From: a virus
IMG/VR virus record: IMGVR_UViG_3300006141_000001
Reading direction: 5' to 3' (one strand)
Length of the DNA: 64,000 nt
Part shown: positions 2,922-41,650 of the stretch, one piece after another
Position numbering within the stretch: position 1 is the stretch's first letter
Layout: each line of letters begins with the position of its first letter
Program-made: the position numbers and the translations under genes
Notes under the pieces: model-generated
Told to the model about the DNA's origin: nothing
Database searches by the model: none
Seen by the model: the letters and a program-made list of their open reading frames with translations, nothing else

Positions 2922-3737
2922 ATGGCTACAAAAATTAGTTTAAAGCAATTAGGTAGTGATGTATTGGCTTTGATGAGTGGTGGCAAAAACACATCACTTG
3001 AAAAAGAAATAATCTCTAATACAGGATGCGGTGCAGCGCCTAGCGGATCAATCTTCCCCCAAGGGCAGACATTCACACAATTTGCGGAAAAAATATTAAG
3101 GAAAGATATTACACCAACTATCTCGACTGCGTTTAGTGGAACTGGCATAAAAGAAATAGGGACATCTGTTAATGGCGTAACAATGGTCTTGAAAATAACA
3201 AATTTAAACGCTGTTACAGTCCCGATAGATGAGGTTAGGTTTTATGTAAATAATGCATTAGTGGATTCGCAGGTATTTGTGGATGGAAAATCTGACTACA
3301 AATATGCGTACGGTGATCCAATTTCTGTAAATACGTCTGTAAAGGCAGAATTATTGTACCAAACTAACCAAAAGATATCTGGATCAGGGAATTTTTCCTT
3401 TGTATATGCTTCGTATTACGGTACTACTGCCCTATCTGGAATATCTGATGTAGATGCCACGTCATTGGCCACATCTTTTTCTAAGAGCATTAAGTCTACA
3501 AAATCATTGGCATGGGAAAATATTACACTTGCAGATGAGAGGTTCTGCTATATGTACCCTACATCATTTGGCACATTATCAAGCATAAAAGACGGGAACG
3601 GATTTAGCCAGATAGATGGGTATATCGTATCAACTGTCAATCTGACAAGCCCTGTCAATGGAAATATTGTCCCATATTTTGTATATTTACTGAAAGATTC
3701 AGCAACAGGCACTGGATTTAAGCAGATATATAGTTAG
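2922..3737 (+). CDS. putative virion structural protein (beta-rich)
   Basis: 271 aa, Ser/Thr-rich, tightly packed in the operon. Confidence 0.55.
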   Translation: MATKISLKQLGSDVLALMSGGKNTSLEKEIISNTGCGAAPSGSIFPQGQTFTQFAEKILRKDITPTISTAFSGTGIKEIGTSVNGVTMVLKITNLNAVTVPIDEVRFYVNNALVDSQVFVDGKSDYKYAYGDPISVNTSVKAELLYQTNQKISGSGNFSFVYASYYGTTALSGISDVDATSLATSFSKSIKSTKSLAWENITLADERFCYMYPTSFGTLSSIKDGNGFSQIDGYIVSTVNLTSPVNGNIVPYFVYLLKDSATGTGFKQIYS

Positions 3738-3751
3738 GAGGGAGTTTAAAA

Positions 3752-33462: not shown

Positions 33463-36400
33463 ATGAATGATTTTATTGTCCAGCTTATAGCAAGATTAGA
33501 TGCGACAAAAGTGAGCGGTGATATAAAAAAAATAGAAGAGCAACTAAAATCTAAAGGCATAAAATTAAAGCCTGTTATTGACTCATCTGTGACTAAACAA
33601 GAATTGCAAAATTTGTCTGTAGAATTACAATCAATATTAAAAAAATCTGGACTGAATATTGATACGAGTAAAATTCTCAGTTCCATCAACCAGATTATTA
33701 GAGAAACTAATAAGGTTGAAAAAGCTATTGTTTCATACACTAATAAATTAAATGATTTTAAGACAAAATACTCAGAAGCCAGTATTGATTACAGTAGTTT
33801 TGAAAAAGTATTTACTCAATTTAAAAATGGTGAGAAAACTTTGAATGAATTAAGCGTTGCTTGGAATAGGTTAAATAACACTGCAAAGCAAGGCACGCAG
33901 AATTTAAAAAGCAAGTCCTCATCTTTTGACCCAATCCAGCAAACACTAAATGATATGAGAAACTTACCTTCTAATTTGACTTCTTTAGAGAAAAGTATGT
34001 CCTCGCTAAAAGACAAATCTAGTTTGGCTGGAGTTTCCATAAAAGACTTAATGACAGAATATGAGGGTTTGAAAAATGAAATGTCACAAAGCAATGGAAA
34101 AGTCCCATTAACAGATGATTGGACTTTAAGATATAGGACTTTAATGGAAACTGTTCAATCTTTAACGAAACAGGTTGAAACATTAAAAAAAGTCGAAGCT
34201 TCAGATAATTCACAAGTTACAAAACAAGCGAATTATTATTCTACTATTCTATCCAACTATAGGCAGATATACTCTTTAAAGCAAAAGCTATTAACTGCTG
34301 GTAAAGAAGAAGAAAAAATCATCAAAGAACAGCTTCGTTCTCTTAGAGCAAGCAATGCAGCAACTTATAAGCAGTTATCATCTCATGGTTTAAAAGATAA
34401 AGGTTGGCAGTCACAGGTCAATGATTTTAAAAAAAGTGCAGAATATAGTTTGCGGGCGGCAGAAGCAAGGCAAAAAGATAAACAAGCAACTGCTGATGCT
34501 ATAAATGCGGAAAAACAACGGCAAGCGAATTTAAAAGAATCAAACAATATTATTAAAGAGTTGGAAAAATCTTATAATAATATAAGCAAATTACAGATAA
34601 AGAAAAGCACTCTTGATCCATCTGTTGATTCTGAAAAAATCACGAAGCTAAGCCAGGAAATAGCCCTAGCGAAAAGGGAATATGATGCACTTTTGTCTTC
34701 TTATAGCAAGAATAAAAATTTTGATAATTCTGCGTGGAAAAATGTTAAATCTGATATAGATGCCGCAACAAAAAGCGCAATTGAATATAATAATGCTTCT
34801 AAAACTGATTACATAAATAAGCAAAAAGAAAGTTTTTCTATTAATCTCGCTGCTCTAAAAACTTCATTAATAGAAAGTGGAACGTATACAGATGAACTAA
34901 AACAAAAGATTTCTTTGCTAGAGTCCGAACTTGAGAAAGTTTCAAATAAGGGGGATCTGTCCACTTTTAAAAATAATTTAAAATCCATACAAACTGAAAT
35001 CAGTTCATTAACATTGGCAAATAAAATTCAATTGAAAGTTGACAGCGGAGATTCTGAGTCAAGGGTTGAAGCACTTATCGCAAAAACCAATCAATGGACA
35101 GACGTTAATGGAAATGCCAGGATTAGTACGACCAGTTTAAGTCAGGCATTGAATGAATTGACTGCTGCTTCTGAGGCTTACAGAAATAATAATACAGGAG
35201 AAACCCAGAAACGTCTTATTACCGCAAACGAAAAACTTACTGAGGAATACAATAAGGTGACAAGTGCCGTAAGGAGGATGAATGCCACATATGCGAAGGA
35301 TACTGATATCGCTTCTCTACACAATAAGATTGGGGATTTTATTGGGAAAAATGGGGATATCATAAAACATCTCGGCACTGACCTGAATGCGATGTTTAGC
35401 CAAACAGCAAAAGGTTCCCAAATTACAACCCAGGAACTGGCCGCATTAGAGCAGAAATTTATAAGTGTGAAAAATGCCGCCAATCAAATTCAAATGGCAA
35501 ATGCCATACACCTAAAAATAGAAACTGGTGAATCAGAGTCAAAAGTTGCGGCATTGATTGACAAGACAAAGCAATGGACTGACGTGAATGGTAATGCAAG
35601 GATCAGCACATCTAATCTATCTTCTGCCCTACATGAATTAGTCACTGCTTCAAACGAATACGCAGGCAATAAGACAGAAACTGCACAGAAAAAATTGATT
35701 GCGTCCAATGAGAAATTAGATGCGGAGTATAAAAAAGTCGCAAATTCTATAAGGCAGACGAATGCAGAGCTGGCAAAGGATTCTGCTGTGGCCTCCCTGC
35801 ATAATAAAGTTTCTGAATTTATGGGAAAGAATGGCAAAGCTGTAAAATATTATGGCACACAGCTAAAAGATATATTCGACAAGACTGCCCAAGGCTCTGA
35901 AGTGTCGAAACAAAAATTGGCACAGCTAAACCAGGAGTTTATAAAATTACAGAATACAGCAAGGGCTAACGGGAAGCTTGGAAAAACATTTTTCCAGACT
36001 ATAAGGGAAGGGATGAGTTCTTTTTCTTATTGGACAAGTTCTACTTTTATGGTAATGAAGGCTATCCAGTCCGTCAAAAGCGGGATAAGCACTATCAAGG
36101 AACTGGACACTGCTTTGGTTGACTTAAAAAAGACAACTACCATGACAGCAAGTGAGCTGGAGGAATTTTATTATGACGCGAATGAGACTGCTAAGGAAAT
36201 GGGCGTTACTACCCAGCAGATTATAGAACAGGCATCGGCGTGGTCAAGGTTAGGATTTTCCAGTGCAGACGCAGCCACTAAAATGGCGAAATATTCCTCT
36301 ATGTTTAAAACAATATCTCCTGGGATGGATTTAGATTCTGCCACCGATGGTCTTGTTAGCATTATGAAGGCTTTTAAAATTGGGCTGGATGATTCTGATG

Positions 36401-36821
36401 AAGTGGTAGACGGAATTATGAGCAAGATTAATGTCATCGGGAATAGTAAGGCATTAAATAATTCAGATATAGTTGAATTTTTAAGGCGTTCTTCTAGTGC
36501 TATGGCTGAAGCCAATAATAGTCTTGAGGAAACCATAGCCCTCGGTGAAGCGGCTGTGGAGATAACTAGAGATGCCTCAAATACAGGGCAAGTTTTGAAG
36601 ACTACAAGTATGAGAATTAGGGGTTATGACGAGGAAGCACAGAGCTATACAGAAGAATTAGAAAATCTTAAAGGGGAAATTGCAGATTTAACAAAAACAG
36701 CAAAAACCCCAGGAGGAATCAGCCTCTTTACTGATGACACAAAAGAAACTTATAAATCTACATATAAAATTATAGAAGAAATCTCTGAAATATGGGATGA
36801 CCTTACAGATAAAAATCAGGC
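33463..36821 (+). CDS. tape measure protein, exon 1
   Basis: Coiled-coil protein; TMP core (ELDTALVDLKKTT...WSRLG...LKTTSMRIRG) breaks off at DKNQA where a group I intron begins. Confidence 0.9.
35017..35970 (+). repeat. 160-codon tandem duplication within the TMP
   Basis: ANKIQLK..GDSESRVEALIAKTNQWTDVNGNARIST and ANAIHLK..GESESKVAALIDKTKQWTDVNGNARIST, 480 nt apart. Confidence 0.85.
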
Positions 36822-37299
36822 AAACAATATGTGCCTGTATGTACAGAAATGTGCATAATATAACACATCTAAAACCAGTAAAACCTAAAGCTCTATCACT
36901 ACAATACGGATGAAATATGCTGGTATGAATGTAACGAAAGTAAAACAACGATAGAGATTCCATATGGCCAAAAGCCTAAGTGGAGATTTTGTCAATTTTA
37001 TATAAATTGAAAATGGTAGCTTGGTCGCAAAGTCCCGAATAGGGATACGTCAAACGACTAGATCCATGTAGGGGTTTGGGCTAGAGAATAAAGGTAAAAT
37101 CCTGAATATCCAAACCTATAATCGTAGGGCGCAAATATATGGCGTGGGTGAGAACCCCTTAAATCGAAACGGTGTGGCTGCTACTCTAATCAGAGTGTGG
37201 TTAAAAAATAGTCTAAACATCTATGGAAACATAGAGATGTTATTGGTTAATTAAATGAGTCTGATTAACTCAAAAAAATATAAGCAGGATAGATAATAT

Positions 37300-37473
37300 A
37301 TGAAGAAATTTGACAAAGAATATTCGACACAATATACTCCTGAAAAAGAATATCTGTCAAAAAAAGGAATTAAACCTTCTTTTGTAAAAATTATAAATGG
37401 AGTAACCACATATAAGTATAAAAAGACACCAGAACTATTTTTAGCTCTAGTGTCTTTTTACATGAAGAAATAA
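37300..37473 (+). CDS. intron-encoded DUF5659-like small protein (57 aa)
   Basis: MKKFDKEYSTQYTPEKEYLSKKGIKPSFVKIINGVTTYKYKK; paralog of 28840-29022. Confidence 0.7.
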   Translation: MKKFDKEYSTQYTPEKEYLSKKGIKPSFVKIINGVTTYKYKKTPELFLALVSFYMKK

Positions 37474-37507
37474 ATATATGAAAGGATAATAAACTGGTGA
37501 TAATATT

Positions 37508-39019
37508 ATGAAATGGACTTCTGAAGAAGAACGAATAATAAAAGATAATTATAAAAATATGTCTGATATTCAATTGATGAATCTTTTACCAAATAGATCT
37601 AAATCTAGTATAGAATCAAAAAGAAAAGACATGGGATTTATTAGACCAAAATATAAAAAATATTCTTTTGATGATGTTATTGATGAATTTTCTAATAGGA
37701 ATAATTATATTTTATTATCAACAAAAGATGAATTTATAGACTGTAATTCAAAAATGAGGTACATCTGCAAATTACATACAAATAAAGGCGAACAATATAT
37801 ATCATTAAATCATATGATGTCAGGAAGAGGATGTAAATATTGTGGCAGAAAACTTGCCGCTCAAAAAACGATGATTCATCTTGATAAAGAATCTGACAAA
37901 AAATTGTGCGAATCTAAAAATTTTGAATATGTAGATACGGTTAGAGAAAATGGCAAAATTAAAATTGTATTTATCTGCAATAATCACCGAGATTTAGGAG
38001 AGCAAAAGGTATTAAAAAGCAATATGAATCGCAATCAAGGATGCAAGTATTGCTGTGGCAAAGAATTGCCAGAGTGGTATGTGTTGCAAAAATCTCATAA
38101 AATAAACCCAAATATAAAATTATTAGAGCCCTATAAGAATTTAACAACTCGTATAAAATGCTTATGCACGAAACATAATCTTGAGACAAATAAAACAATG
38201 CAACAAATATTAAAAGGACAAGGATGTTGTCTTTGTGGGAGTGAAAAATTATCAAAACAAAAATTTCTTTCTATTGATGAAGTCCAAAACAGTATTAATA
38301 AATATAACCCGCATATTAAAATACAAAAATATAATGGGGCAAACGTTGAATCTACTTTTTATTGCCTAAAGCATAAAAAGATATTCAAAAAATGCTATAG
38401 CACATTATTACATCGTAAAAGCGGATGTGATGAATGTTATGCTGAAAACATTCGCGAAAGACAAGGAATGGGGATTGAGGAATTTAAAAATAGATTGCAA
38501 AAAGTACATCCAGAATTAATAGTGACTGGGGAATATGTAAATAATTCAACACCAATTAATGTATATTGCCAGAAACATAATTATGAATATGCTCTTACTC
38601 CTGTTGCATTATTAGATAGATTGACCTGTTGCAATAAGACACGTATCACATATAAAGAAGAGAATATTTGTCAATTGTTAGAAAAGTGGGGATTTAATAT
38701 AACCAGGCAAAAAATATTTGATGACTGTATTGATAAGCGCGCTTTGCCTTTTGACATTTATTTTGATGATTTCAATACAATTATAGAATATCAAGGAGAG
38801 CAACATTATAAGCCGATTAAATATTCTTCACAATCATATGACGATGCTAAAATCAAATATGAATATACCAAAAAACATGACAAAATAAAAAAAGAATATT
38901 GTAAAAAACACAAAATCAAGTTTATTGAAATTCCTTATTGGGAATTTGATGATTTAGAATATTTTTTATTTGATCAATTAGTTAAGAAGAAGATAATTAT
39001 AGAGAACAAAGCGGCATAA
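37508..39019 (+). CDS. intron-encoded homing endonuclease (Zn-ribbon repeats plus Vsr/PD-(D/E)xK-like C-terminal nuclease)
   Basis: Myb-like N-terminus (KWTSEEERIIK); repeated C..H...GC..C; C-terminal LPFDIY...IIEYQGEQHY...D..K..YC....IEIPYW. Confidence 0.85.
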   Translation: MKWTSEEERIIKDNYKNMSDIQLMNLLPNRSKSSIESKRKDMGFIRPKYKKYSFDDVIDEFSNRNNYILLSTKDEFIDCNSKMRYICKLHTNKGEQYISLNHMMSGRGCKYCGRKLAAQKTMIHLDKESDKKLCESKNFEYVDTVRENGKIKIVFICNNHRDLGEQKVLKSNMNRNQGCKYCCGKELPEWYVLQKSHKINPNIKLLEPYKNLTTRIKCLCTKHNLETNKTMQQILKGQGCCLCGSEKLSKQKFLSIDEVQNSINKYNPHIKIQKYNGANVESTFYCLKHKKIFKKCYSTLLHRKSGCDECYAENIRERQGMGIEEFKNRLQKVHPELIVTGEYVNNSTPINVYCQKHNYEYALTPVALLDRLTCCNKTRITYKEENICQLLEKWGFNITRQKIFDDCIDKRALPFDIYFDDFNTIIEYQGEQHYKPIKYSSQSYDDAKIKYEYTKKHDKIKKEYCKKHKIKFIEIPYWEFDDLEYFLFDQLVKKKIIIENKAA

Positions 39020-39079
39020 TCAACCGTTGCAATAATTAACCAATAACTCGTAAACGTTATGAACTTACGGAATACAATG

Positions 39080-39224
39080 ACAATTGCTTGAAGCTTTAGC
39101 GGGGAAAAGAAATGGGCAGGCTTTAGCAGCTATCATCTCTAATTTTAATAGCGCCCGCGAATCAATGGAACTTATGGAAAATTCTGCTGGAAATGCAGAA
39201 AAGGAAATGTCAGTCGTTGTGGAC
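39080..39224 (+). CDS. tape measure protein, exon 2
   Basis: QLLEALAGKRNGQALAAIISNF...NSAGNAEKEMSVVVD continues the TMP core in frame. Confidence 0.88.
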
Positions 39225-39766
39225 AAACAAAACTGTCCATATGTACAGAAATGTGCATATAGTTCATATTTAATTGCAGGTAATGCGTAAGAGCCTTGCA
39301 CCACAATAATCAGGAAACTAGATTATGAAGGTACGAAAGTAGAAAAAACGCAAGGATGGTATATGGTCAAAAACCTAAGTACTACTCTTATATCAAAAAG
39401 AGAAAATCGCTGTTCATGCAGCCAAACACCCTAACGTATCCCATAGACCATATGGTATTTGAGTCGAGGGTGGAGGTTCAACGATCATTCCCCGTAAGGG
39501 GATTTAGGAATACTGAAAATTCAGTTATAAAATAAAGGTGGAAATCCTGAATACCTAAATCAAAAGAAGTACGGCTTAATCGCAAATGAAGTCGGTGAAA
39601 CTCCGTTAAATGGAAAAGGTATGCTCTTAACACATAATGGTGAAGATGGAAAAATGATCTAAACATCCATGGAAACATGGAGATGCTATTGGTTAACTTA
39701 GAAAATAAACATATTATATTTTAACCAATAACTAATTGGATGTTGCGAATCCGATTGAATATTTTG
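39225..39766 (+). ncRNA. group I intron 2 in the TMP (542 nt, no ORF)
   Basis: IGS ACTGTCCA complementary to junction TGGAC|AGT; P7 GATCA 39483-87 / TGATC 39655-59, covarying with intron 1; P2 and P9 hairpins near-identical to intron 1; ends in G. Confidence 0.9.
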
Positions 39767-39967
39767 AGTATCGACTACAAACTAAACCGTCTCAAGGAAA
39801 CAGCCACTGGCACAGCCCAGAACTTATTCAAACGCGAAGACATGAAAACCATCATAGATGGATTGACAGGTCTTTTAAGCGTAATTGACTCATTAACAGA
39901 GAAATTAGGCATATTAGGAACCATAGGATTTGGTGCAGGCCTATTCGCTGGGATTAAAAACGTCGGT
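39767..39967 (+). CDS. tape measure protein, exon 3
   Basis: SIDYKLNRLKET...LGTIGFGAGLFAGIKNVG; ends at the U of a U.G P1 pair. Confidence 0.85.
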
Positions 39968-40410
39968 AAGCCTAAAATGCGTGGCTTCATATTTTAAACG
40001 TGCCGACAATAATATGTGTTCTTTAGGATACTAAAGTTTCCATATTATCGAATGCGGGATATACGCATGGTAAATAAATAACAGGGACAATATGCGGGAA
40101 AAATTGAGGTACAACGGCTGCGTAATGGCAGTATATCACTACTCTCCTGCCCATGGGAACGTGTGCAGGTTCGTAAAAACGTGACGCTCCTCCAATCCGC
40201 AGGGACAGGCCTATGATGGCAAGCCCTCACAGAGCGGCAACTCCCACAATAAGTCTATTTGAAACGATGCTTATTGAATATGCGCTCGGTGCTGCCTGGC
40301 ATGACAGGTCAATCCGTGAAAAGATTGTACAAATGCGGGAATCTTATCTCCTGCTCATGCAATGTGGAACCCTTATTGCCAAGGGTTGGTAAGAATGGCA
40401 ATATTAAAAT
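39968..40410 (+). ncRNA. catalytic core of group I intron 3
   Basis: P1 GTCGGT 39962-67 / GCCGAC 40002-07 (U.G); P4 TGCGGG 40093-98 / TCCGCA 40196-201; P7 C(A)GAGCG 40230-36 / CGCTCG 40283-88; P8 CAATAAG/CTTATTG; several P9 hairpins. Confidence 0.85.
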
Positions 40411-40465
40411 TTGTGTAACTCAGAAAAAAGTCGAAAATTTTTTAAAAAATTTATTATAAATTATA

Positions 40466-40494
40466 TTTACAAATTTTACTAATTATGCTACTCT
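40466..40494 (+). promoter_or_regulatory. sigma-A-like promoter for the DUF262 gene
   Basis: TTTACA-17 bp-TACTCT with extended TG. Confidence 0.5.
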
Positions 40495-40522
40495 GAAAAT
40501 ATAAAAATTTCGGAGGTGTAAA

Positions 40523-41515
40523 ATGAAAACAGCCAGTAAGGAAAGAACATTACAATGGATTGTAAACCAACATAAAAAAGGAAATATTTCTTTTTCGCAC
40601 AAGCTACAGAGGCCGATTGGGCAATGGAATGCAAGAATGAAGTCCCTATTGATACACAGCCTTTTGTCTGGATTCCCAGTGAACCCCATTTATATAGTAG
40701 ATGAGGATGGAACGTTATATACGCTTGATGGATCGCAAAGAACTTCAACTTGCATCTCCTATATAAACAATGAATTTTCATTAAGCAAAGATACTCCCAA
40801 AATTGTAATTAAAAGCAAAAAAGATGGGGAAACCGTATCGACAGAGTATGATATAGCAGGCAAAAAATTTAGCAAATTAGACGAAGAGGTGAAATCGACC
40901 TTGCTTGCATGTAGTTTAGAATTTTGCACATTATCTGAATATACAGATAATGAGGTCAAGGAAATGTTCAAGAGACAGAATACTTCCAAGCCTTTAAATG
41001 GTAAATTATTGCGCATAGTCCATGAATCAGATGCCTTCAGTGATGCTGTATATTCACTTGCTACTCATCCATTTATGCTTAAAATCACAACGCCAACACA
41101 ACGTAAGAATGGGACAGATAGGGATTTAATCATCCAAACACTTATGCTTATGTGTACTGACAAGGAAAATGATTTTACTTCGTTTAGGACAAAAGACATT
41201 GATGCCTTTGTTCGTGATTATGGTGACAGTATTTTAAACAAGACAGAAGTATTGCAAACTGCACTGGACAATTTTAATAAATCATTTGACGAGATAAAAA
41301 TACCTGTCACATCTGTACCAATGGTGTTATATAGCGGATATCGTATAACCAAAGACAAGAAATCATTCTCAAAATTAGTTGAAATGATAAACGAATTCTT
41401 AAATGGATATGATGGGAACGAAGAATATAAGAAGTATGTGCAATCCGGAACAAGCAATTCTGATAATGTCCGTGGAAGGTTTGATTATTGGAGGGAAAAA
41501 ATCAAGACGGCATAA
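40523..41515 (+). CDS. DUF262 (GmrS/ParB-like) domain protein
   Basis: LQRPIGQW...SLLIHSLLSGFPV..IY.....LDGSQRTST...EMFKRQNTSKPL motifs. Confidence 0.85.
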   Translation: MKTASKERTLQWIVNQHKKGNISFSHKLQRPIGQWNARMKSLLIHSLLSGFPVNPIYIVDEDGTLYTLDGSQRTSTCISYINNEFSLSKDTPKIVIKSKKDGETVSTEYDIAGKKFSKLDEEVKSTLLACSLEFCTLSEYTDNEVKEMFKRQNTSKPLNGKLLRIVHESDAFSDAVYSLATHPFMLKITTPTQRKNGTDRDLIIQTLMLMCTDKENDFTSFRTKDIDAFVRDYGDSILNKTEVLQTALDNFNKSFDEIKIPVTSVPMVLYSGYRITKDKKSFSKLVEMINEFLNGYDGNEEYKKYVQSGTSNSDNVRGRFDYWREKIKTA

Positions 41516-41520
41516 ATTAT

Positions 41521-41562
41521 AGCCTGTAAGAAGAATGATTATTTTTCTTGCAGGCTTAATTT
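41521..41562 (+). terminator. terminator-like hairpin
   Basis: AGCCTGTAAGAAG...TTTCTTGCAGGCT. Confidence 0.6.
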
Positions 41563-41622
41563 ATAATATTACCATTTTTGTTACGCAAATATTAAGTTAT
41601 TATTAAATAAATGTTAATATAC

Positions 41623-41650
41623 TTGACATTTAGTATTTTTGTGATACACT
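41623..41650 (+). promoter_or_regulatory. sigma-A-like promoter
   Basis: TTGACA-16 bp-TACACT with TG. Confidence 0.55.

Follow-up and report, generated by a model that had tools for sequence, protein, structure and literature searches.

Two group I introns with an apparent C-G pair instead of the U.G wobble at the 5' splice site interrupt the tail tape-measure gene of a gut phage

Introduction

The U.G pair at the 5' splice site is a near-invariant recognition element of group I introns, with published exceptions, and it is built into intron-finding rules and into the design of trans-splicing and RNA-circularising ribozymes. How, then, might a group I intron choose its 5' splice site where this wobble pair is missing? 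The question is raised by the tail tape-measure gene of a gut phage (IMG/VR record IMGVR_UViG_3300006141_000001; the window analysed here is the whole stretch of 64,000 nt), which comparison with intron-less homologues demonstrates to be interrupted by two group I introns. A preliminary description of this DNA had noted C-G rather than U.G at the 5' splice site of both, and our comparisons at the sequence level confirm that pattern. We consider, with a probability of about 0.8, that these are mobile IA2-like group I introns in which P7.1/P7.2 are present and P5 is greatly extended, and which would be cut at the 5' site without a U.G wobble, and that they represent a large lineage colonising tape-measure and other genes of gut phages.

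Results

Exons and splice junctions

The interrupted region is made up as follows.

33463..36821, + strand: tape-measure exon 1 (ORF and translation; PF10145 homologues; colinear with intron-less homologues)
36822..39079, + strand: intron 1, a group I intron (IA2-like) of 2258 nt with G39079 as its last base (intron-less alleles; RF00028 at 24.5 bits; family covariation of the core helices)
39080..39224, + strand: exon 2, 145 nt, encoding (A)QLLEALAGKRNGQ...EMSVVVD (sequence; intron-less homologues)
39225..39766, + strand: intron 2, 542 nt, ORF-free, group I (IA2-like), ending in G39766 (intron-less alleles; family covariation)
39767..39990, + strand: exon 3 (SIDYKLNRLKETATG...), reaching a third interruption near 39990

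Intron-less homologues of 83-90% identity run uninterrupted across both sites (NQA|QLLE and V.D|S.D.) at the protein and the DNA level. Their protein reads without a gap as ...DKNQAQLLE(V/A)LAGKRNGQALAA...EMSV(I/V)(M/V)DS(L/I)D(F/Y)KLNRL, and the DNA of the intron-less alleles L118 and L126-130 matches the ligated exons base for base. The frame is exactly restored at both sites, and homologues exist with neither, one or both introns. The junctions put forward in the preliminary description, CAGGC|ACA and TGGAC|AGT, are thus borne out by colinear homologues, as are its 145 nt between the sites, which is the length of exon 2, and the gap-free alignment it had predicted, with NQAQLLE and (I/V)(M/V)DS(L/I)D(F/Y) across the two sites. 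The 48 residues supplied by exon 2 belong to the best-conserved part of PF10145, and the exon itself lacks both a start codon and a ribosome-binding site.

Since intron and 3' exon both begin with A at each site, DNA comparison fixes the junctions to within one base, and this 1-nt sliding applies to 13 of 13 verified cases in the family, verified 3' splice sites being only those matches that continue the tape-measure motif. Moving the cut one base later would put A-U at the splice site and A at the end of the intron; U.G occurs in neither register. A brute-force search for 3' splice sites by P10 pairing and an open frame was set aside, as it returned mostly false matches inside endonuclease ORFs.

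Guide sequences and the 5' splice-site pair

The internal guide sequences (IGS) were read directly from the DNA.

36830..36837, + strand: IGS of intron 1, TGTGCCTG
39232..39239, + strand: IGS of intron 2, ACTGTCCA

The reverse complement of TGTGCCTG, namely CAGGCACA, equals the ligated exons CAGGC|ACA, and that of ACTGTCCA, namely TGGACAGT, equals TGGAC|AGT; the earlier reading of each IGS as a perfect 8-nt complement that places C opposite the IGS G therefore holds at both sites. The chance of such a complement at a fixed position is about 1.5e-5, and it is seen twice, with different sequences. The last five bases of exon 1 (CAGGC, 36817-36821) form the P1 5' strand of intron 1 and pair with GCCTG of the guide (5 bp), with G36833 opposite C36821, and the last five of exon 2 (TGGAC, 39220-39224) do the same for intron 2 with GTCCA (5 bp), G39235 lying opposite C39224. 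In P10 the guide TGT of intron 1 pairs with ACA at 39080-82 and the guide ACT of intron 2 with AGT at 39767-69; T36832 of intron 1 has A36822 as its partner in P1 and A39080 in P10. The U.G wobble is accordingly absent from both introns, which have C36821-G36833 and C39224-G39235, the only other register giving A-U. Both introns end in G (G39079 and G39766), and the base just before the 3' exon is G in all 13 verified cases. Over at least five insertion sites in the intron family, the guide varies along with the exon.

A group I fold of IA type

The following elements were located within intron 1.

36838..36857, + strand: P2 hairpin, 8 bp with a GAAA loop, abutting P1 (sequence; exact copies in 111 IMG/VR stretches)
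36864..36869, + strand: P3 5' strand CACATC, partner GGTGTG at 37171-37176 (family covariation)
36873..37025, + strand: P4-P5 domain (RNAalifold)
37056..37060, + strand: P7 5' strand GACTA, inside AACGACUA (family comparison)
37171..37239, + strand: P3 3' strand, P8, J8/7, P7 3' strand and P9 (RF00028 alignment, high posterior probability)
37240..39046, + strand: P9.1 stem, 37240-51 with 39035-46, carrying both ORFs in its loop (inverted repeat TTATTGGTTAAT / ATTAACCAATAA)
37300..37473, + strand: 57-aa ORF that related introns also keep ahead of their endonuclease gene (ORFs like it in L058 and L116)
37508..39019, + strand: 503-aa homing-endonuclease-like ORF (PHROG 559, 9084 and 7140; Pfam DUF723)

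Their counterparts in intron 2 are these.

39240..39259, + strand: P2 hairpin, identical to that of intron 1 (sequence)
39265..39270, + strand: P3 5' strand CATATT, partner GGTATG at 39618-39623 (same pair in L057, L058 and L026)
39275..39420, + strand: P4-P5 domain with P4 TGCAGG / TTC(A)TGCA, P5 GCG/CGC and P5a CCTTGC/GCAAGG (RNAalifold)
39483..39561, + strand: P7 5' strand, P7.1 and P7.2 (sequence)
39618..39685, + strand: P3 3' strand, P8 (39625-46), J8/7, P7 3' strand (A)TGATC (39654-59) and P9 (39663-85) (family comparison)

The group I identity proposed for both introns is upheld by covariation in the core, by the P1 and P10 guide pairings and by the alignment of the 3' half of intron 1 to RF00028. 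The two introns share the start AAACAA, an identical 20-mer TATGTACAGAAATGTGCATA (8-bp stem and GAAA loop, at 36838-36857 and 39240-39259) and P9 hairpins at 37217-39 and 39663-85, and they differ in P7 (GACTA/TAGTC in intron 1 versus GATCA/TGATC in intron 2), all as first noted. Across the family P7 occurs in at least four variants, the other two found being GGTCA/TGACC and GATTA/TAATC. For P3, all 6 of 6 pairs form in 25 of 32 anchored relatives, compared with 14.5% for shuffled hexamers, in at least 12 pair combinations and with a fixed spacing of about 37-43 nt before the P7 3' strand. With P8 lying between the P3 and P7 3' strands, this gives a P3-P7 pseudoknot core. An assignment of P3 to ATTTAA/TTAAAT was rejected, since covariation in compact relatives puts P3 at the hexamer just upstream (CAYATY), with GGTRTG before P8.

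Compensatory changes support 16 of 27 predicted pairs in P4, P5, P5a-c and P6 (RNAalifold, 53 relatives), the helix labels in this domain being assigned by position only. In intron 1 these are P4 AACCAG/CTTGGT, P5 ACC/GGT and P5a CTCTATC (36891-97) with GATAGAG (36950-56), with hairpins closed by GAAA loops; further 3', P8 is ACTCT...AGAGT (37183-96), J8/7 is A-rich, the P7 3' strand is TAGTC (37209-13) and the P9 hairpin spans 37217-39. The IA subgroup is recognised by additional helices located between P7 and the 3' strand of P3. Intron 2 has P7.1 and P7.2 in this place, where the P7 5' strand GATCA(T) (39483-88) is followed by the P7.1 hairpin (39489-39502, GTAA loop) and the P7.2 stem (39501-08 with 39554-61), and intron 1 has an equivalent stem, GGTTTGG/CCAAACC. 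Intron 2 also carries a P9.1 stem like that of intron 1, with a loop of 24 nt.

RF00028 matched intron 1 at 24.5 bits on 37054-37236, in a narrow or a whole-genome search, against a gathering score of 50 bits; it gave no match to intron 2, and Rfam gathering and E-value scans of the whole region returned no group I match. A degenerate P9 pattern searched in viral contigs likewise gave no matches. Considering that introns with C.G continue to be counted among group I introns in published work (Hur and Waring, 1995, as its title indicates), we treat U.G as a conserved, not a defining, feature of the class.

The 503-aa ORF of intron 1 combines repeated CxxC zinc-ribbon motifs with a C-terminal nuclease domain and matches PHROG 559 (E 7e-47), 9084 ('homing endonuclease') and 7140 ('intron encoded nuclease'); the 57-aa ORF has no match in Pfam or PHROG. 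An endonuclease ORF in intron 1, together with presence or absence of introns at conserved sites among close homologues, is what is expected of mobile introns.

A lineage with a variable splice-site pair

The exact 20-nt P2 hairpin retrieved 111 IMG/VR stretches. Across 68 distinct contexts, which are phylogenetically non-independent, the pair between the -1 base and the IGS is mostly C-G (35) or U-A (9), with U.G in the minority. The main clade has C-G 35, U-A 9 and U.G 2, and throughout it the partner of the -1 base is the fifth nucleotide 5' of P2; the second clade has U.G 5 and, probably, A-U 8, the register of U.G and A-U members being assigned by analogy. At splice sites checked by the tape-measure motif, C-G occurs in the two introns of the window and in L013, L024, L026, L029, L039, L080, L084, L112 and L113, and U-A in L077 and L098. 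At one shared AG|K site, L112 combines GGC with a guide G, and L077 and L098 combine GGT with a guide A; the pair at this site stays Watson-Crick even though U.G was available. When J4/5 and J5/4 were inspected in the alignment of 53 relatives, no difference between U.G and non-U.G members was seen, and thus there is no hint of a compensating change there.

The two introns of the window had been called siblings, a description that does not survive comparison with the family. Outside the invariant P2 they are about 55% identical over P3-P6, versus 92% and 84% with introns of other phages (the core of intron 1 is 73% identical to intron 2 in a pairwise alignment), and intron 1 falls in a clade of 100/100 support that excludes intron 2; judged by sequence, they are cousins from different clades. 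The further proposal of retargeting through the IGS stands within the lineage, where introns 92% identical to intron 1 occupy a different site of tape-measure genes. Because introns 1 and 2 are not siblings, there is no support for a direct hop from one site to the other, 145 nt away.

The codon at site 2

At site 2 the codon is GAC in 6 of 6 intron-bearing loci (three exon haplotypes) and the synonymous GAT in 6 of 6 intron-less loci (three haplotypes); the upstream exons of L123 and L126 are identical except at the GAC/GAT base. Instead of selection, this association could reflect exon co-conversion, in which the C was carried along with the intron. Allele L120 (read-through peptide KQNYP) was considered as a U-A covariant at site 2 and rejected, as it has C opposite A.

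Discussion

Cleavage-site choice

We infer that both introns are spliced, their removal from the mRNA being expected to follow the ordinary guanosine-initiated two-step reaction. P1 would be a 5-bp exon-guide helix stacked straight on P2 with no linker, and the cut would fall after the fifth pair counted from P2, which is C-G in both introns. One more pair would follow the cleavage-site pair, between intron A+1 and a U of the guide; in P10 this U would later pair with the A that opens the 3' exon. The invariant terminal G and the canonical P7 point to a cut after C and not after the next A. Altered splice-site recognition, the term of the preliminary description, would then mean that the lineage chooses its cleavage site by helix geometry, i.e. 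by distance from the P1/P2 junction, and not by recognition of a wobble pair; such a choice would allow introns to settle behind a codon-fixed C (GCN Ala, ACN Thr, CAA Gln). A study of the Anabaena intron reports functional 5' sites with Y opposite a guide G (PMC12355055), which makes cleavage without a wobble mechanistically plausible. We suggest, tentatively and with somewhat less than even confidence, that a large gut-phage intron lineage has dropped U.G as its 5' splice-site marker and cuts after any Watson-Crick pair five pairs from the P1/P2 junction, which would free it to insert behind codon-fixed bases and to hop among conserved sites of essential genes by rewriting its guide.

Alternative explanations

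The most serious alternative, although we regard it as rather unlikely, is that the C-G pair makes these introns slow or helper-dependent, so that the non-wobble site, spread by homing and co-conversion, is a tolerated defect or acts to restrain late tail-gene expression, and is not a changed recognition rule. Replacing U.G by C-G slows the chemical step of the Tetrahymena ribozyme, and for that reason introns 1 and 2 might splice poorly or need a helper protein. Such established kinetics on other group I ribozymes, the homing endonuclease of intron 1 and the strict co-occurrence of C and intron at a synonymous site, which fits co-conversion, would all be in keeping with a tolerated defect. 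However, the tape-measure protein is essential and both introns must leave the same transcript; C-G or U-A is dominant over many sites and phages, U-A is used where one guide change would give U.G, and the C opposite A in L120 indicates that the -1 position is not frozen.

A cut one base later, after A36822 and A39225, with an invariant A-U pair and introns ending in A39080 and A39767, is considerably less probable. The mature mRNA would be identical, so that comparison with homologues is blind to the register, and across the main clade this A and its partner U are as invariant as U.G is in ordinary group I introns. Against this, the shifted register needs a terminal A, whereas G lies directly before that A in all 13 verified 3' ends; P7 is of the canonical GACUA/UAGUC type common to td-like introns that bind G; and the U.G members have U, not A, at the same distance from P2. 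That the insertions are not spliced at all, leaving the tape-measure protein in separate pieces (ending in read-through peptides ...NQANNMCLYVQKCA) or the gene dead, would agree with the lack of an Rfam match at gathering score and is very improbable indeed, given an exon 2 that holds a highly conserved PF10145 block with no means of initiating its own translation, exact frame restoration at both sites, a covarying group I core and the same arrangement in many otherwise intact large phage contigs.

Significance and comparison with known systems

Considering cleavage after C-G or U-A as the preferred reading, the lineage may serve as a test bed for cleavage-site choice without a wobble and, if it works with these pairs, would provide ready-made ribozymes with looser target rules. 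Annotation pipelines that rely on RF00028, or that require the intron to follow a U, will overlook these introns, and essential phage tail genes will be reported as fragments. Group I reviews and a paper on Bastillevirinae introns make no mention of non-wobble splice sites.

In relation to RF00028 (Intron_gpI), the 3' half of intron 1 aligns at P8, J8/7, the P7 3' strand and P9, but intron 1 stays below the gathering score and intron 2 is unmatched. The P7 motifs of the present introns, AACGACUA...AUAGUCU, are presumably those of the T4 td intron. With td and Twort-type IA2 introns they share these motifs, P7.1/P7.2, the P9 hairpin and a peripheral loop that houses an endonuclease ORF; unlike those introns, which cut after U.G, the present lineage has a larger P5 extension, no J1/2 linker and a weak RF00028 score.

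Two features have precedents: the retargeting of tape-measure introns by the IGS (PMC2504315), and C.G in two other group I introns (Hur and Waring, 1995). The latter report, by its title in the reference list of PMC6468297, concerns two group I introns with C.G for U.G at the 5' splice site and raises codon-level ('post-translational') selection. The introns of the window resemble these in their natural C.G, and the codon-level idea would fit the C of site 1, fixed by an Ala codon; they differ in that a whole lineage, with U-A as well, takes the place of two isolated introns, and in that the C of site 2 is at a synonymous position, where U would be cost-free. Related IA2 introns, TMP-IVS1 and TMP-IVS2, were described in tape-measure genes of Bacillus cereus-group prophages, with P1 adapted to different sites of one gene (Tourasse and Kolsto, 2008; PMC2504315). 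The present introns match these in host gene, in class, in number (several per gene) and in adaptation of P1 and IGS to different sites. They are set apart by description, as the text consulted mentions no non-wobble pair, whereas the lineage described here, from uncultured gut phages, has mostly C-G or U-A.

As judged from sequence, introns 1 and 2 of the tape-measure gene are most likely functional members of group I, with a C-G pair as the 5' splice site, set at a constant distance from the P2 hairpin, within a lineage in which the splice-site pair is relaxed.

Exon ends and junctions

The sequence of the window corresponds to the minus strand of an IMG/VR virus record of 169.7 kb, and a PF10145 tape-measure gene was located in the region carrying both introns. 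Its first ORF runs 12 codons into foreign sequence and then stops. The elements concerned, read on the strand of the window, are:

33463-36858, first tape-measure ORF
33463-36821, exon 1
36822-39079, intron 1
36830-36837, guide (internal guide sequence) of intron 1, TGTGCCTG
36838-36857, P2 hairpin of intron 1
39080-39224, exon 2
39225-39766, intron 2
39232-39239, guide of intron 2, ACTGTCCA
39240-39259, P2 hairpin of intron 2
from 39767, exon 3

The preliminary description had proposed two sibling group I introns with C-G instead of U.G at the 5' splice site. The motifs that it named are all found at the positions claimed: CAGGC (36817-36821) ends exon 1 and TGGAC (39220-39224) exon 2, both introns start AAACAA, ACA (39080-39082) stands directly after G39079, and AGT (39767-39769) directly after G39766. 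Used as a query, the final 240 residues of exon 1 matched thousands of tape-measure proteins; some homologues of 83-90% identity end in the same read-through peptides (NQANNMCLYVQKCA; MDKQNCPYVQKCA), and others, also 83-90% identical, continue uninterrupted (...WDDLTDKNQAQLLEVLAGKRNGQALAA.ISNF...EMSVIMDSLDFKLNRL...). The three exons of the window are colinear with the uninterrupted homologues, with no residues gained or lost, and the DNA of intron-less alleles (phage or metagenome stretches L118 and L126-L130) aligns base for base with the ligated exons, which supports the named junctions in both protein and DNA to within one base. The boundary is fixed only that far because both introns and both 3' exons start with A, giving two possible registers: a cut after C with an intron ending in G, or a cut after the next A with an intron ending in A. 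U.G is absent from the 5' splice site in either register, as claimed, and any in-frame alternative with a U before the cut would bring in extra residues that are absent from every homologue. The observations of the preliminary description therefore stand; its interpretation is supported in part.

Exon 3 ends near 39995 (..GKPKMRGFIF, then stop) and is followed by structured, GC-richer sequence (39990-43200 and beyond) with a DUF262-like ORF (40523-41515) and further ORFs. L118, which has no introns at sites 1 and 2 (the insertion points of introns 1 and 2), is interrupted at the same place as the exon 3 end.

Intron class and fold

Rfam gave no group I match at the gathering score and none in a 3.2-kb E-value scan; a focused search scored 24.5 bits (E 3e-4) for intron 1, aligning J8/7, the P7 3' strand and P9 with high posterior probability, and returned no match for intron 2. 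Because the Rfam model is weak here, the group I case rests on comparative analysis. In the RNAalifold prediction for 53 distinct 5' halves, 16 of the 27 pairs show compensatory changes. The helices concerned include a long-range helix (TGCAGG/TTC(A)TGCA, or ACCAG/CTTGGT instead in the intron 1 clade), an adjacent 3-bp helix (GCG/CGC, ACC/GGT, GTG/CAC) and three hairpins; helix names inside P4-P6 are guesses by position. Just 5' of the long-range and 3-bp helices lies a hexamer (CACATC in intron 1, CATATT in intron 2) with partners immediately before P8 (GGTGTG and GGTATG, respectively). Pairing is 6/6, some 37-43 nt ahead of the P7 3' strand, in 25 of the 32 relatives in which all anchors could be located, as against 14.5% for shuffled hexamers, and involves at least 12 pair combinations (e.g. 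CGAGTC/GGCTCG, CAAACT/AGTTTG, TGTATC/GGTACA). This covarying helix is P3, and with P7, itself variable (GACTA/TAGTC, GATCA/TGATC, GGTCA/TGACC, GATTA/TAATC), it forms the defining pseudoknot. The fold is IA2-like, since hairpins (P7.1/P7.2) separate the 5' strand of P7 from the 3' strand of P3; the motifs AACGACUA and AUAGUCU resemble those of the T4 td intron. The proposed group I identity is thus borne out by covariation of the core helices, and we conclude on comparative grounds that introns 1 and 2 are group I introns.

A 12-bp P9.1 stem of intron 1 holds two ORFs in its loop, and the 503-aa ORF matches phage homing-endonuclease families. Ahead of the endonuclease gene, a 57-aa ORF (MKKFDKEYSTQY...; 37300-37473, +) has clear similarity to ORFs in related introns of other phages (L058, L116) and no match in Pfam or PHROG. 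The sole gathering-level Rfam match in the window is a full-length Fusobacteriales-1 RNA (RF02920) at 49192-49311 (+), which scores 101 bits (gathering score, 52).

The splice-site pair

Each guide is the exact complement of its ligated exons (CAGGC↓ACA and TGGAC↓AGT; arrow, cut). A full eight-base match at a given position has a probability of ~1.5e-5 by chance, and such a match is seen twice, with different sequences. Directly adjoining each guide is an identical 20-nt hairpin (P2; 8 bp, GAAA loop), and this exact 20-mer is present in 111 IMG/VR stretches, with 70-90% core identity to the two introns. Throughout the main clade the guide adjoins P2, and the base before the cut has as its partner the fifth nucleotide 5' of P2.

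Splice-site pairs (base before the 5' cut : guide base) in 68 distinct contexts, a few of them mis-registered; some C-G and U-A cases are verified through their 3' exons, and the U.G and A-U classes are assigned by analogy of register.
Clade: C-G, U-A, U.G, A-U
Main clade: 35, 9, 2, -
Compact sister clade: -, -, 5, 8

Among the cases whose 3' exon was identified because it continues the motif of the tape-measure protein, C-G is found in 11 (introns 1 and 2, L013, L024, L026, L029, L039, L080, L084, L112 and L113) and U-A in two (L077 and L098), spanning at least five insertion sites (FKT↓ISMRIRG, Q(A/T)↓, AG↓K, GKRQG↓Q and VVD↓S). At AG↓K, where the third base of the Gly codon is unconstrained, GGC occurs with guide G in L112 and GGT with guide A in L077 and L098; Watson-Crick pairing is retained at this site although U.G is one substitution away.

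Intron 2 follows the third, synonymous position of an Asp codon, so that U.G would carry no coding cost at site 2, yet it is absent where the intron is present. In a small sample, the codon is GAC in all six intron-bearing loci examined (three exon haplotypes) and GAT in all six intron-less loci (three haplotypes); between L123 and L126 the preceding 17 bases are identical and the base before site 2 is the sole difference. This association could reflect selection for C-G, or could stem from co-conversion of flanking exon sequence in homing. An intron 2 orthologue in L120 (ERZ14241413 contig, ~3700-3750) has guide ACTATCCA instead of ACTGTCCA with the exon still GAC, which sets C opposite guide A (C.A apposition).

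At site 1, intron-less alleles (L118, L120, L121, L126) differ from the window at synonymous positions (CAA GCC CAG TTA, CAG GCT CAA TTA and CAA GCA CAG CTA; window, CAG GC↓A CAA TTG), among them the predicted P10 partner of the guide U; these differences may represent co-conversion or endonuclease-resistant alleles.

Kinship and retargeting

The two introns are not each other's nearest relatives, contrary to the sibling claim: they share ~55% identity over P3-P6 outside P2, as against 92% between intron 1 and L080 or L116 and 84% between intron 2 and L026 or L077, and the intron 1 clade (100/100 support) leaves out intron 2. Members of that clade with near-identical cores are inserted at different sites (Q-A↓ in L009 and L116, FKT↓ in L011 and L080), and guide retargeting is therefore real in the lineage. 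The suggestion of retargeting through the guide accordingly holds for the lineage; a direct hop between the two sites of this gene is not supported. Another phage gene (L096, 9330-10100) has two related introns at a spacing of 425 nt, with the same target AAAGAGAA before each and the same guide TTCTC; this pair is a repeated homing site in one gene.

Comparison with known systems

For a natural C.G at the 5' splice site there is a single precedent, which Hur and Waring reportedly described in 1995. The literature, partially covered, yielded no description of an intron lineage with Watson-Crick splice-site pairs as the rule. Among GenBank phage records, extended similarity to intron 2 is confined to the unannotated L004 (MT835469.1, Bacteriophage sp., human faeces, 176 kb), at 72% over 58% of the length, in two places. 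Sepunavirus phages (L005, Staphylococcus phage vB_SepM_BE06, MT596503.1, 1430-1750) have an unannotated ~490-nt gap directly after the tail tube gene with the same core motifs (GGTTACGAAAGTAGAAAAAA, GTTCAACGACTAT, ACAAATAGTCTAG) and no P2 hairpin; the gap could be a group I intron missed in annotation, or the remnant of one. Usable sites with Y opposite the guide G are described in an engineering study of the Anabaena intron (PMC12355055). Bacillus cereus-group prophages carry several group I introns in one tape-measure gene, among them 80%-identical IA2 introns with P1 adapted to two sites (PMC2504315).
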